Origin: a bacterium | GTDB lineage: Bacteria; Zhuqueibacterota; Zhuqueibacteria; Residuimicrobiales; Krinioviventaceae | Direction: 5' to 3' | Assembly: GCA_963693055.1 (NCBI GenBank) | Contig: OY843751.1 | Location: 6,080,001-6,144,000 of the forward strand | Length of the DNA: 64,000 nucleotides | Program-made: the position numbers and the translations under genes | The notes under the pieces: generated by a model | Database searches by the model: none | Seen by the model: the letters and a program-made list of their open reading frames with translations, nothing else | What the model was told of the DNA's origin: nothing | Shown: positions 5,175 to 12,324 of the stretch, in pieces | Layout of the letters: every line of letters starts with the position of its first letter | Numbering within the stretch: the stretch's first letter is position 1

Positions 5175-5262
5175 GATCGCCGGGTGTCTTTATTCCAGAC
5201 GGAATGATACGACCGGACATGTGTTCGGTTCTTACCAGCTCGGCACTCTGGTACCGGGCGAT
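5175..5262 (+). repeat. Structured repeat family B, copy 1 (internally deleted)
   Basis: GATCGCCGGGTGT...GGAATGATAC.ACCGGACATGTGT.CGGTTCT...CTGGTACCGGGCGAT; shared with 8045 and 12244. Confidence 0.85.
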
Positions 5263-8008: not shown

Positions 8009-8044
8009 GTAAAACATATTTTAAAAGTCGCAATTTAATTCTAT

Positions 8045-8263
8045 GATCGCCGGGTGTATTTACGCCCGGCGGAATGATACCACCGGACATGTGTCCGGTT
8101 CTCTGGGACGAATGTCCGGTATTAAATCCGCCCGGACCCTGAGTTCTCACTCGTCCGCTGTCGCTTTGCGGACGAGTGAGAGTATCGAAGGGCCGGGAAG
8201 AAAAACAATATGAATATGATCTCCAATTATGATTTCAGCCAGGTAACCAAATACCAGGCGATC
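8045..8263 (+). repeat. Structured repeat family B, copy 2, with a nested ~110-bp insert
   Basis: Termini GATCGCCGGGT...ACCAGGCGATC; the insert contains a perfect 14-bp stem 8145-8158/8168-8181. Confidence 0.85.
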
Positions 8264-8353
8264 AAGGTACAACTATCAGACCCCTGACAAGGCCTTCGCT
8301 TAACTCATCAACCCTGACAATACCATTATCTTTCAATTAGCATTCAAATCTAA

Positions 8354-8430
8354 ATGTCCCGTTAGGGACAAAATATTTATAGAACTGTAAAAATGAGAAT
8401 TCGCATGCCGTCAGGTATGCAATATTGTAG
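8354..8430 (+). repeat. REP-like palindrome pair, family C (TGTCCCGTTAGGGACA; GCATGCCGTCAGGTATGC)
   Basis: Two short hairpins, each followed by AATATT(N)1-3TAGA; architecture resembles REP doublets. Confidence 0.55.
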
Positions 8431-8576
8431 AGTTTTATCATATATAAATAGTATCATATGACCAGAGGAGAAAAAGAAATTTATAAAACCCCCTAAAAAT
8501 ACAACGGAGCGTCAGATCATTAATAAATTTGGTGATCTGTCATTCTGAAAGTAATAAAAGGGAAATATAAAAGCAA

Positions 8577-9401
8577 CTAATTGTTCTTTGAAAGATTCAA
8601 CTGACTCCTTTGATTTTTAATTTTATCAGGCAAAAGATCAACATATTGTTGTATGACACGTTTGGAAAGTCTTGCCAGCTGGCTGATTTGATCAAGGTTT
8701 TTAATGTCATGCTTCCAAAGTAATTCAACACGATGGTAATCTTTGATATACCTGTCAACCGCTTCGTTGCTGTGTTTGGTTTTCAAAGCGATTTCGGGAG
8801 TGAGATATCCCTCAAGATACAGAGTGATAATTTCGCGTTTATGAGTAATAGCGCCGGAAAGATCATGGATGTTGCCACGCGTTGGTAAGAGATGCCCTTC
8901 TTTTTGGATTTCATTTACATATTTACTGACAACGGCATCACAGACACCGAGTAACATAGCCAGGTCAAGTTGAGTAAGCAGAGCACCTTGATCAAAAGCT
9001 TCATCAACCCAACGTTTGAGGCGTCTTTTCCTTAAAGTTTTGGAATCAAAACCATGCGCGATATGAGAAGTATCCTGATCAGTAATGAAAGAGAGGACAA
9101 CGGGTTTCATTCGGGTAGCGGCAATACTTTTTCCGCGTTTGGGGTATTCATCGACAGGAACAGCCATCCAGACGAGTTGCCCATAGTGAATATGGTGCAA
9201 GTCATCATCAATAGAGGAGACAAGGAAATAGTCATCAATGATTTTAAGGATATCATCAATGATGGCATTGGCAGTGATGGCTCCTTTGTCATAGCCATAG
9301 CTATTCAAAAAGTTGTACAGTAGTAACTGCTTGAGATCTTTATCTTTAAGTCGTCTCATTTTTTTGAGTTGAATTTGTTCTTTAGTCAAAGGTTTACTCA
9401 T
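8577..9401 (-). CDS. DUF1670-like protein B (HTH-containing)
   Basis: EAFDQGALLTQLDLAMLLGV, PTRG..HD, THKREII.LYLEG, KHS...VDRY; start 9401 with GGAGG RBS overlaps the stop of paralogue A. Confidence 0.75.
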   Translation of the reverse strand: MSKPLTKEQIQLKKMRRLKDKDLKQLLLYNFLNSYGYDKGAITANAIIDDILKIIDDYFLVSSIDDDLHHIHYGQLVWMAVPVDEYPKRGKSIAATRMKPVVLSFITDQDTSHIAHGFDSKTLRKRRLKRWVDEAFDQGALLTQLDLAMLLGVCDAVVSKYVNEIQKEGHLLPTRGNIHDLSGAITHKREIITLYLEGYLTPEIALKTKHSNEAVDRYIKDYHRVELLWKHDIKNLDQISQLARLSKRVIQQYVDLLPDKIKNQRSQLNLSKNN

Positions 9402-10233
9402 TTTCTTTGCCTCCTGATAGATGTTGAGGAATGGATTTTTTTTTCGCGTCGCCACCAGGTTCCGCAGGAGATAACAGATCGTTTAATCGCGTATTGTTTT
9501 GTTGAAGATAGGTTTGGTAGAGTTGGATATACTCGCGCACCAGGCGGTCGGATTTCTTTGCAATGAGTCGAATCTGGTTCGGAGAGAAATTTTCCTTGTA
9601 TAAAAGGGCGATCTGCATAAAGTCAGCGAGGTAACGTTTGATGCTGGTTTCAGAATGATTGGTTTTTTGTTCTATTTCTGAAAAGGTATAACCTTTAAGA
9701 TACAGATCAATAATGATGGTTTTATGAGACAGTCCGGGACCCATGTCATGTTTCATACCTCGTGTCATGATAAACATACCGTGATGACGGAGATGATAAA
9801 TGTCACGTTTAACAGTGGCCGGACTGGTGGTTAAAAGCATTGCCAGGTCTTCATAGCTGAGTAAAGCACCCTGATCATAGGCTTGTCGAGTCAGACGGGC
9901 GATCCGGTGTCGTCTAAGTCCGGCAAGGCCATAATTAGCCAGGGCTTGCAGATCTGTATTAAAGTCAATTAGTTTGAGACGGACCGTAAGCTTTCGGGTT
10001 AATCTGATATGTTTGCCGGCTGGTTCTTCAGCGGCAACAGCTTCATAAGCGACTTCACCTCCTGATAATGAAATGTTGGAATGTTCCTGAAAGTATTGGT
10101 CAAATTGTTGATAGTAAGCTTCGGCAATAATAGGAGTCAAATTGAAATCCTGAGACAGTTTTTGGACAATAGCGTTTTTAGCTGTCTTGGATTCGAGTCT
10201 TTTTAAACCATAATTATTTTTAACATCTGCCAT
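9394..10233 (-). CDS. DUF1670-like protein A (HTH-containing)
   Basis: QAYDQGALLSYEDLAMLL..S..TVKRDI, TRG..HD.G, SHK.III.LYLKG, NHS..SIKRY; paralogous to 8577-9401; AGGAG RBS. Confidence 0.8.
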   Translation of the reverse strand: MADVKNNYGLKRLESKTAKNAIVQKLSQDFNLTPIIAEAYYQQFDQYFQEHSNISLSGGEVAYEAVAAEEPAGKHIRLTRKLTVRLKLIDFNTDLQALANYGLAGLRRHRIARLTRQAYDQGALLSYEDLAMLLTTSPATVKRDIYHLRHHGMFIMTRGMKHDMGPGLSHKTIIIDLYLKGYTFSEIEQKTNHSETSIKRYLADFMQIALLYKENFSPNQIRLIAKKSDRLVREYIQLYQTYLQQNNTRLNDLLSPAEPGGDAKKKSIPQHLSGGKENE

Positions 10234-10481
10234 AAGAATCTCCTTATTTCTGTTTTTATTAAAACAATGATTCCTATGGTCATATGCACTAAACTTTAAA
10301 AACCGTGAAATCCTGTTGTTTTTTCATATTGACTATTATAATCTCAATCATTAATTTTTAAAATGGCGGGAGTTTCTTATGTTGCAGGGGAACGACATCA
10401 CCTAACTCATAATTCAAACAATACATTTAATACACTGAGTAAAATACGATTACTCTTTACTCACTAATAGCAGGGTCAAAT

Positions 10482-12146
10482 ATGAAAACCATAAACATTC
10501 TTTTTATTTACCTGATTACATTATCTATCAATGTATTCGCTGTTAATACTTTTCAATACAAAAAGATACTTCCCCGCAGTCAATGGTCTGACTATACACC
10601 TGACAGACCACATACCGCGGTATTGATGAGTGATGATGGAAATATTATTGTCGCAAGTCAGGCCTTTTCTTCGGAATGCATAGTAATGCAGAAAATTGAT
10701 CCGTATGGAAATCCCTTGTGGGCTGATCCTGAAACCGGTTTGAAACTCGTTGATAACACATCTTCTATAGATGTTAATTATTATCCGTCTATGGCAAGTG
10801 ATGGCAATGGAGGCGTATATATTGTTTATGCTGCCGGTATTTATGCAATAGAGGGAAATGATTGGAGATTTTATTTTGATACCTATCTTCAGCATTTAGA
10901 TGCTGATGGAAATAAACAGTGGAATGATAAAGGATTATTGTTAAAAACCGGATCATACCCTTGGGATATAGCCAGCGATGGTGAAGGAGGAGTGTATGTA
11001 TTATATTATGGAAGCTCTAATTGCGATCATTATCCGGGAACCCTTTTGCAGCATATTAATAAAGCGGGTGAAAAAAAATATCCAGGATTCGGTTTTGCTA
11101 TTATGGAATGTGATTCTTTATATTTAAACAGGCTTTATCTGGATGGCAATCATGGTATTTATATATCTAATAAAAATAATTATCTGCAGCGGATGAATGA
11201 AGAAGGAGAGTTTCTTTTTCCAATGCCATACATTGATACTGGCCTACCAAATCTACTTTTTCAATGGTTTTTTAATAAAGGTGAAGAAATGATTCTTGCT
11301 GGTAAAGAAAAAGGCACAAATAACTTGTATGTTCAAAAGCTGTCAGTTGATGGTGAATATCTTGGGAACCCAAATGGATACACATATACATGGCCGGATT
11401 CTTTAATTTTTTTCCCTGTAATAATTCAAAAAAATGACAGCACACTTTCTGTTTTTAATGGCTATTATGCACAAAACATTCAAATCAAACCCGTTTTTCA
11501 ATTTAAAAACCCTATCAGAATTATGGAAAAACAGATTAATTATCCTAGAGTTTTATATTCTGTTTATACTAAATTATATGGTACATTTATACTTTTTGGA
11601 GATGTGAAATATGAAGACGGAAAAAACCATTCACTTGTTAAAATGCAAAAAATTGATAAAACAGGAGGTTTGCCATTAGGTATCGAAGGAATAACAATTT
11701 GTGATACTACGAGTATGCTGTCAATACTTAACCCATTATTTACTATAAACGAACAAACTGGAACAGCACTGGTTTTTCTTGAATTTCAAGATGGTTTACA
11801 TGTAGCCATTGTTGATCTCAAAACCGGTACAGTTGTTGATGATAAAGATGAACAAATTAATTCAAAGATTCCTGATAATTTTATTATTTCCGGATATCCC
11901 AATCCATTTCACGAAGTAATCCATTTTACTATAAAAAAGCCTAATCTGTCCGACAGGATACAAACAATAAAAATTTACAATATTCTCGGAAAGGAGGTCA
12001 AAGACCTTACACAAAAAGAAATATCAACACACACATTTTCATGGGATGGAACAGATGATTCCGGTCAGCGGGCGGCTGCCGGTATCTATTTTGTTCAAAT
12101 TACCGCAAAACAAACATTCACTCAAAAAATACTGAAACTGAAATAA
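10482..12146 (+). CDS. Secreted beta-propeller-like protein with C-terminal FlgD-Ig/sorting domain
   Basis: Signal peptide; SDG.GGVY repeats; YPNPF...IYNILGKEV...WDG...GIYF. Confidence 0.75.
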   Translation: MKTINILFIYLITLSINVFAVNTFQYKKILPRSQWSDYTPDRPHTAVLMSDDGNIIVASQAFSSECIVMQKIDPYGNPLWADPETGLKLVDNTSSIDVNYYPSMASDGNGGVYIVYAAGIYAIEGNDWRFYFDTYLQHLDADGNKQWNDKGLLLKTGSYPWDIASDGEGGVYVLYYGSSNCDHYPGTLLQHINKAGEKKYPGFGFAIMECDSLYLNRLYLDGNHGIYISNKNNYLQRMNEEGEFLFPMPYIDTGLPNLLFQWFFNKGEEMILAGKEKGTNNLYVQKLSVDGEYLGNPNGYTYTWPDSLIFFPVIIQKNDSTLSVFNGYYAQNIQIKPVFQFKNPIRIMEKQINYPRVLYSVYTKLYGTFILFGDVKYEDGKNHSLVKMQKIDKTGGLPLGIEGITICDTTSMLSILNPLFTINEQTGTALVFLEFQDGLHVAIVDLKTGTVVDDKDEQINSKIPDNFIISGYPNPFHEVIHFTIKKPNLSDRIQTIKIYNILGKEVKDLTQKEISTHTFSWDGTDDSGQRAAAGIYFVQITAKQTFTQKILKLK

Positions 12147-12243
12147 TACTTATTAGAGGGGTAATGCAATTCAATACATTTGCATTTTTAATTTTATTAC
12201 CCATCACAAATTTTGCTGCAAATATTGATATAGGATAGGAGAC

Positions 12244-12324
12244 TGATACTTCTAAACATGTATCCGGTTCTCCGGGTCGAATATCCCGTCATAAATTCCG
12301 CCCGGACCCTGGTACCAGGCGATC
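12244..12324 (+). repeat. Structured repeat family B, copy 3 (5' truncated)
   Basis: TGATAC...ACATGTATCCGGTTCTCCGGG...TTCCGCCCGGACCCTGGTACCAGGCGATC. Confidence 0.8.

Follow-up and report, generated by a model that had tools for sequence, protein, structure and literature searches.

Here an insertion element, termed E1, is described within a 64,000-nucleotide stretch of the bacterial contig OY843751.1 (the window, to which all unqualified positions refer). Its sole genes, A and B, both encode members of a protein family of unknown function, DUF1670 (Pfam PF07900). E1 is an active mobile insertion element, with multiple identical copies and exact empty sites, and because the A/B pair is its only content, the pair very probably acts as a recombination enzyme. 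The reading toward which we lean, with modest confidence, is that the pair is the transposase of E1, acting either as a heterodimer or as a fusion generated by slippage, and that it cuts DNA by means of a tyrosine nucleophile likely situated within a helix-turn-helix (HTH) domain rather than within a tyrosine-recombinase fold. An initial annotation of this DNA, based on a motif in which a histidine precedes a tyrosine (H...Y), had proposed a divergent pair of tyrosine recombinases akin to XerC and XerD. What survives of that proposal is a likely recombination enzyme, an ancient heteropair and functional His, His and Tyr residues; what does not survive is membership in the tyrosine-recombinase family.

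The element and its genes are as follows (ORF, open reading frame):
8446..10299, strand not assigned: element E1, including both ambiguous AA dinucleotides, with a net insertion of 1,852 bp; defined by its copies, depth and empty site
10233-9394, minus strand: ORF A, DUF1670, 279 residues, whose stop codon overlaps the start of B by 8 bp
9401-8577, minus strand: ORF B, DUF1670, 274 residues from its ATG, the frame being already open from 9455

Copies, genes and ends of the element

In the 6.5-Mb genome of the window (G000), E1 is present as six copies, which are 100% identical and have sharp common ends. A second DUF1670-pair subfamily, E2, whose proteins are about 42% and 31% identical to A and B, is present in the same genome as seven copies with a net insertion of 1,886 bp. 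Within three runs of one sample (possibly the source of the assembly), E1 forms a single unitig of 1,854 nt, with depths of 48.7, 60 and 25.4 versus 3.7-12.5 for its flanks. Exact empty sites were found in a genome of the same genus (G001) for five of the six insertions queried, including the window copy; the sixth matched at one flank only. Three other long-contig genomes harbor 7, 7 and 5 DUF1670 elements. Within the phylum, PF07900 occurs in 25 of 113 genomes, mostly as pairs; it also occurs in 19 of 301 genomes from another class and in the control genome of the archaeon Methanosarcina acetivorans.

Both ORFs score far above the Pfam cut-off for DUF1670 (199 and 211 bits versus 25) and are thus members of the family; they are 34% identical to each other over 196 residues. 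An Atlas search returned DUF1670 clusters only, while plasmid and phage records yielded no match, and no occurrence was confirmed in viral contigs nor, for the member P0133, in metagenomes. No publication was found by the name DUF1670 or PF07900 in a search that lay outside ISfinder, supplements and most subscription journals (so that an ISfinder entry is possible), and topic searches of the literature returned nothing on a DUF1670-pair element. Rfam gave no match of note, and a count of promoter consensus sites (11, versus 7.2 +/- 2.4 in shuffles) was not informative.

In a tree of 23 of 105 pairs, with near-copies removed, the upstream genes form one clade and the downstream genes another (support 100/99); A and B are therefore two ancient clades, which bears out the heteropair idea of the initial annotation. 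Single-ORF fusions of A to B occur naturally, and an A-run near the end of A suggests how such a fusion might also be made from separate ORFs:
9436..9444, minus strand: run of nine A's near the end of A, where the frame of B is already open; likely slippage site for an A-B fusion

Among 22 pairs (one of the 23 could not be parsed), 21 have an A-run of at least 7 within the final 90 nt of A, and 17 have one of at least 8; in comparison, a run of at least 7 is found at the end of B in 2 of 22 pairs and in 5.5% of the 3,551 long ORFs in the genome. The frame of B relative to that of A is +1 in 8 of these pairs and -1 in 14 and, because both frames occur, slippage by the polymerase is a fitting explanation. 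Judging from these patterns, the A-run is likely a slippage site yielding an A-B fusion; an alternative is that it encodes a basic Lys tail, and the related elements in this count are not independent of one another. As for a heterodimer, the predicted A:B complex scores 0.53 versus 0.00 for the best control, which is graded weak; 116 of 157 solved pairs and 2 of 215 mismatched pairs reached the mark, with scores of at most 0.60 accounting for only 18 of the 157 and for both mismatches. Contact agreement between runs was no lower than 51%, and partner pLDDT no lower than 68.

Read on the plus strand, the element has the form AA-ATAG-TATCATATGACC ... GGTCATATGCAC-TAAACTTT-AA, with these parts:
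8446..8451, plus strand: element-supplied AAATAG, which rebuilds the host Lys-stop at normal targets; identical in the six copies, the right junction being host-dependent
8452..8468, plus strand: left subterminal repeat, consisting of a 12-bp 5-2-5 quasi-palindrome, TATCATATGACC, and AGAGG
10273..10299, plus strand: right end, consisting of CCTAT, the palindrome GGTCATATGCAC (10278-10289), the spacer TAAACTTT and AA, after which host AAAC follows

The left subterminal repeat is likely a dimer-binding site. The other subfamilies examined have 12-bp 5-2-5 palindromes of their own arranged in the same design, with a spacer that is short at one end and long at the other, the two summing to 13-14 bp.

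Other traces of these elements are scattered through the genome. Decayed E2-type left ends lacking genes occur at the ends of sorting-domain genes (see below) at positions 1730447, 5975648, 3844075 and 5684747 of G000 contig C1, and a gene-less E2-type right end occurs at C1:333436; these remnants suggest repeated ancient visits. An ORF that starts at about C1:1732480, roughly 2 kb from the remnant at 1730447, probably encodes an IS256-like transposase, to judge from its sequence. E1 and E2 also occur as neighbors at C1:507846-511586 and C1:1346328-1350143: in one case E2 lies directly before E1 at the end of a single sorting-domain gene, and in the other the two lie between two convergent sorting-domain genes. 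Stacking of this kind is possible because E1 re-creates the target at its left end. At another locus (L042), a scar to the right of the E1 end has one palindrome, belonging to another subfamily, with a left-type spacer on one side and a right-type spacer on the other, and looks like an element that has collapsed between its two palindromes.

Target sites and the point of strand breakage

E1 and E2 usually insert at the last codons of a particular class of genes, namely those encoding a sorting domain of the type IX secretion system (T9SS). Eleven of the 13 copies are located directly at the Lys-stop codons of such genes, and the host flanks of all 11 score above the Pfam cut-off for PF18962 (T9SS sorting) or PF13860 (FlgD_ig); of the remaining two, one has been displaced by an E2 copy at a sorting-domain end and the other is the window copy. 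The AAATAR supplied by the element restores the Lys-stop, and the host hexamer is shifted to the right, where the sequence varies. The genome contains 228 ORFs that end in such a domain, 156 of these in Lys-stop, as against 1.4 million AA dinucleotides. The same preference is seen in 48 GTDB loci from Ignavibacteria, Bacteroidetes, Cloacimonadota, KSB1, Poribacteria and others (36 with both junctions, 9 with the left junction only and 3 with none): 44 of the 45 left junctions show sorting-domain-like ends, one of them off register, as judged by eye from translations. This stop-codon target is common to four divergent subfamilies.

The window copy is an off-target insertion, since its site is not the end of a sorting-domain gene:
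8043..8445, plus strand: target region of the window copy, intergenic and repeat-containing, and contiguous in G001 with the sequence from 10298 onward

Scored with a target matrix (such matrices were built from 33 foreign targets), this site reaches -7.6, versus 10.8-26.5 for the 11 on-target sites. The next gene of the window, at 10482-12146, also encodes a sorting domain and terminates in Lys-stop, but its end is unoccupied; E1 lies about 180 bp upstream of its start. Intergenic repeats resembling repetitive extragenic palindromes (REP) or miniature inverted-repeat transposable elements (MITE) occur in the window at 5175-5232, 8045-8141, 8333-8426 and 12241-12311, with more copies elsewhere in G000 and many in G001.

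Other subfamilies have other targets. One (L076 and L077), whose ends read TGCCA-NN-TGGCA, goes into short GC-rich hairpins, at the GAA loop; another (L089-L096), which is found with a Methanoperedenaceae-type protein, targets AT-rich DNA. At L089, filled and empty copies of one short repeat occur within the same contig, the filled copy being the empty one plus the element. A further subfamily (L074, L013, L078 and L150) has a variable first base at the junction; at L074 the insertion point is some 18 bp away from a TTGACA and may fall within a -10 box.

No fixed target duplication is made. The possibility that AAATAR is a true target duplication was considered and rejected, for the right copy is host-dependent and the left copy is fixed. 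In comparisons of the junctions of relatives, with chance pattern matches set aside by eye, bases 3-6 vary freely with the host. The first base of the dinucleotide is mismatched between the junctions at four independent loci (L073/L199, L074, L194 and L025/L200), and the second at L025/L200 only. These mismatches disfavor an obligatory 2-bp core or duplication and lead us to infer that the strand break falls between the two A's, at 8446/8447.

Conserved residues, fold and mechanism

Both H...Y motifs quoted by the initial annotation, as well as the TRG..HD and DLAMLL motifs, are present in A and B exactly as it gave them, and its statements on the H-x7-Y spacing and on the lack of a clear HxxR hold for both proteins. 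The proteins do not, however, end in the H...Y motif, as it had claimed: a second HTH comes after it, and 56-78 residues lie C-terminal to the tyrosine. The residues considered below are, in A/B numbering, R113/R130, R158/R175, D163/D180, H170/H187, K171/K188, H193/H210, R200/R217 and Y201/Y218; the candidate active sites are encoded as follows:
9631..9747, minus strand: candidate active site of A, comprising D163 (9745-47), H170 (9724-26), K171, H193 (9655-57), R200 and Y201 (9631-33)
8748..8864, minus strand: candidate active site of B, comprising D180 (8862-64), H187 (8841-43), K188, H210 (8772-74), R217 and Y218 (8748-50)

Conservation was assessed in 84 diverse relatives obtained by searching 1.84 billion representatives, and is counted as the rows having the residue at each position. 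Both histidines and the tyrosine, whose conservation the initial annotation had put forward for checking, are invariant: in A numbering, H170 in 82/82, H193 in 84/84 and Y201 in 83/83. The counts for the other positions are K171 (80/82), R113 (82/84), D163 (78/82), R200 (73/83) and R158 (71/83). Such conservation goes beyond chance; the mean column identity is 27% (in an overlapping 90-row alignment). R130, H187, H210 and Y218 (B numbering, used from here on unless noted) are likewise kept in both genes of the 23 pairs of the tree, one row being truncated.

A natural control is provided by an extra N-terminal DUF1670 repeat found in some long members, termed here the accessory repeat (n = 11, two of which are near-identical). 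In these repeats D180 is retained in none, H187 in none (Arg replacing it in 9), H210 in none (Ile, Leu or Val replacing it in all) and Y218 in one, while scaffold residues persist: R130 in 11/11, P173, G198 and S211 in 10/11 and G176 in 9/11. By comparison, D180, H187, H210 and Y218 are all present in 18 of 18 full repeats of the long proteins plus two fused proteins; the tyrosine of the second HTH (HTH2) is replaced by His or Phe in 5 of these 18, and that of the first (HTH1) in none. The fold thus needs none of the four residues, given that accessory repeats keep the scaffold without them; their joint loss is the behavior of an active site and suggests that they are catalytic. (Among the long members, P0126, P0128, P0136 and P0143 (930-952 residues), P0179 and P0218 are three-repeat and two-repeat DUF1670 fusions; in P0254 the DUF1670 region is fused to a DnaG-type CHC2 zinc finger.)

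AlphaFold2 models of A and B (pLDDT 88.0 and 88.9; pTM 0.65 and 0.53) both begin with two N-terminal helices and a beta-hairpin, followed by a winged HTH and then two HTHs, laid out in B as follows:
ORF B, predicted layout from the model: N-terminal helices, beta-hairpin, winged HTH at residues 120-182, HTH1 at 186-230 and HTH2 at 236-273

The motif region is thus predicted to fold as an HTH; the initial annotation had named a plain HTH fold, with residues not clustered or not conserved, as evidence that would count against its proposal, and of these the fold is what the models give, while the residues are conserved. The best structural matches, of middling Z, are to transcriptional regulators: NiaR (Z 6.6, root-mean-square deviation (rmsd) 1.7, 56 residues aligned) and DesR for the motif region, HTH1 (Z 5.6, rmsd 1.7, 49 aligned). 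HTH1 is moreover a tandem repeat of the following HTH (hhalign probability 94%) and, inasmuch as the two share the x7 spacing, H-x7-Y reflects the HTH register. Foldseek found nothing in the PDB at E <=0.001 for either model; VIA-align gave no Z >=8 and, among the 50 matches listed, no tyrosine recombinase, TopIB, HUH or serine recombinase, an absence that excludes nothing; and a viral structure library yielded low-TM HTH-type matches only. A match of the winged HTH to topoisomerase VI A (Z 6.0, rmsd 2.5, 61 aligned) was rejected, as DUF1670 has no conserved Tyr there. A resemblance of the N-terminus to HU/IHF (1ihf_A: Z 5.2, rmsd 2.1, 39 aligned) was unsupported, hhalign against 5 HU sequences giving 0.2-0.3%.

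The mechanism proposed here would proceed as follows. The two palindromes, which would have a 13-14-bp spacer between them once the ends were joined, would be bound by the winged-HTH and HTH domains. Tyr201 of A or Tyr218 of B would then attack one phosphodiester between the two A's to form a covalent protein-DNA intermediate, helped by His170 and His193 (187 and 210 in B), Arg113 (130) and Lys171 (188). The adduct could be either a 3'-phosphotyrosine, as for recombinases, or a 5', metal-dependent one, as for HUH enzymes. One strand would be exchanged and the process completed by replication or repair, in a copy-out/copy-in cycle that would allow multiplication, and such single-strand exchange could tolerate mismatches beside the break. 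The target would be read from the DNA as a degenerate, codon-periodic pattern, AAR ATG NTN NTN NTN AA, with precision added by a longer stretch of context or by selection favoring harmless sites. For the circular INTERMEDIATE presumed here, no end-to-start joint was found in the assembled contigs of the three runs, which is uninformative because contigs drop rare forms; two candidate joints were disregarded, their sides being only 21 nt.

Several observations weigh against this reading. HTH2 also has a Tyr, in 79/83 relatives, an aromatic residue at that HTH position being ordinary; D180 (78/82) and R175 (71/83) vary in the wider set and in some clades; and catalysis by an HTH of the LuxR/sigma-4 type is not known to have a precedent. 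Regarding the target, a 27-bp matrix leaves, at the lowest on-target score, 658 genome sites of which only 170 are at sorting-domain ends, so that readout of a short motif alone is insufficient for the precision seen (a 66-bp matrix leaves 141 sites, 138 of them at sorting-domain ends), and no clear base preference is apparent by eye between filled and empty sorting-domain ends (12 versus 144). Regarding the break point, the loci concerned lack empty orthologues, so some mismatches may be later mutations, and at three loci (L002, L076 and L077) both junctions have AG, a pattern compatible with a 2-bp core as well.

Three other accounts have to be considered. One, which we regard as unlikely, is that A and B form an enzyme that works by metal-dependent hydrolysis and strand transfer, with Asp, His and His binding metal and Tyr positioning the DNA. 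The joint loss of D180, H187 and H210 from accessory repeats would suit this account, as would the ordinary presence of an aromatic residue at the Tyr position in HTH structures. It is harder to reconcile with the Asn or Leu that stands in place of D180 in 5 of 46 element-pair proteins, with an HTH1 Tyr that is never Phe, His or Trp in full repeats (the HTH2 Tyr being replaced), and with the lack of the duplication typical of staggered hydrolytic transfer. Slightly less likely still is that A and B bind DNA without themselves being catalytic, serving as adaptors that bring in a host enzyme or the transposase of another element. The structural matches, all of which are to HTH domains of regulators, would be expected of adaptors, and weak matches to models of IS630 (12 of 90), IS21 (4) and IS1 (1) may point the same way. 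Yet a universal partner would be needed, for the same ends and residues occur in Ignavibacteria, KSB1, Cloacimonadota, Poribacteria and the loci of the archaeal-type homologue; and the polar residues are invariant though the end palindromes differ by clade, which fits chemistry better than base reading.

Least probable is that A and B are true tyrosine recombinases of a divergent kind, paired like XerC and XerD. They do form a heteropair, the residue order R...R/K...H-K...H...Y is similar, with last spacings of 1/22/8 as against 3/23/9 in the XerC/D-like proteins of the genome, and hhalign pairs the helix preceding HxxR with the DUF1670 R130 helix (E 0.04). That alignment against seven of the genome's recombinases has a probability of 1.3%, however, the recombinase profile being shallow (7 sequences). 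Moreover, the genome's XerC/D-like proteins read HxxRH...H-x8-Y, whereas DUF1670 has T/S-H-K and H-x7-Y, without HxxR and with the x7 shared by HTH2. Nor does any profile point to this family: PF00589 matches neither A nor B at E <=0.1, no recombinase is among the 19 NCBIfam families matched by 90 members, a PDB search with the DUF1670 family profile yields none at E <=10, and the best 25 of 101 families in a Pfam profile comparison include no recombinase. Finally, a shared overlap of 6-8 bp is lacking.

A broader claim, on which our judgment is evenly divided, is that DUF1670 constitutes a transposase class of a new kind, a regulator-type HTH having become its catalytic domain, with an ancient heterodimer or slippage fusion, a minimal element, single-strand transfer and, in several divergent subfamilies, scarless insertion at the last codon of genes for secreted proteins. 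Here the recognition-helix Tyr would be activated by two His replacing the usual Arg and a hydrophobic turn residue.

Implications and comparison with known systems

A Pfam domain that had no assigned role, although present in both bacteria and archaea, would thereby acquire a function; candidate residues, ends and target are defined to the base, so that the proposal is testable with two small genes and a mini-element. Gene-sparing, single-base insertion with subfamily-specific targets (stop codons, hairpin loops, AT-rich DNA) should interest genome engineers; if the proposal is true, these would be natural, retargetable safe-harbor integrases. Insertion-sequence (IS) annotation that relies on known transposases cannot see DUF1670-pair elements. 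New here are the direct recombinase test, the accessory-repeat control, the A/B tree, the empty orthologous sites, the break-point mapping and the A-run count.

Among known systems, two-ORF elements of the IS3, IS1 and IS630 type have overlapping ORFs, a slippery A-run, HTH domains and DDE enzymes. DUF1670 elements are similar in their overlapping ORFs, in an A-run that could make a fusion and in their HTH domains; they differ in having no DDE domain, in that both ORFs are paralogues, and in that B may lie in either the +1 or the -1 frame. IS110/IS1111 and IS607 elements have subterminal inverted repeats at unequal distances from their ends and an apparent dinucleotide core, and make no duplication; those of IS110/IS1111 also encode a DEDD recombinase domain and a non-coding guide (bridge) RNA. 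DUF1670 elements resemble them in their unequal subterminal repeats, in the dinucleotide and in the lack of duplication, and one subfamily targets hairpin loops; unlike them, they have neither a DEDD nor a serine-recombinase domain, and the dinucleotide may differ between junctions. No guide RNA is apparent either, as the 3' non-coding part of E1 is 46-215 nt and unconserved.

Like XerC and XerD, A and B are two paralogues that occur as a pair, have an invariant His and Tyr with nearby Arg/Lys in a similar order, and belong to a site-specific system without fixed duplication. Tyrosine recombinases use a 6-8-bp overlap shared between sites, with exceptions; the DUF1670 element shares at most one base at the crossover. 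Tyrosine recombinases carry an RHRY catalytic motif, and SEs encode true RHRY tyrosine recombinases, IntA and IntB, together with two helper genes; the median SE is 15.7 kb long, and SEs take along a 6-bp spacer from the joint (PMC10214605). DUF1670 elements are like SE, GInt and Tn554 in their target-specific integration, imperfect inverted ends and two cooperating paralogues, and unlike SEs in having only the two DUF1670 genes, a length of 1.7-2.0 kb and a fixed element-side hexamer (PMC10214605). A strand-biased copy-out, on the SE model as outlined there, would best fit the junctions.

IS200/IS605 elements are moved by a homodimer of the HUH Y1 transposase TnpA, make no target duplication and have hairpins instead of terminal inverted repeats (PMC7290912). 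DUF1670 elements are likewise small, make no target duplication, adjoin a short target and have one Tyr (here a candidate for catalysis) with two His; unlike IS200/IS605, they encode two paralogous HTH proteins of 270-290 residues and have inverted subterminal palindromes (PMC7290912). In addition they lack an HUH motif, the invariant His being 23 residues apart, and Y1_Tnp does not match. The same source assigns four chemistries, DDE, Tyr, Ser and HUH, to insertion-sequence enzymes (PMC7290912); because the element is demonstrably mobile yet matches the profiles of none of the four, an undescribed DNA strand-transfer enzyme is indicated. The enzyme-defining features of SE/Tn554, of IS200/IS605 and of IS1111 are all lacking from the element.

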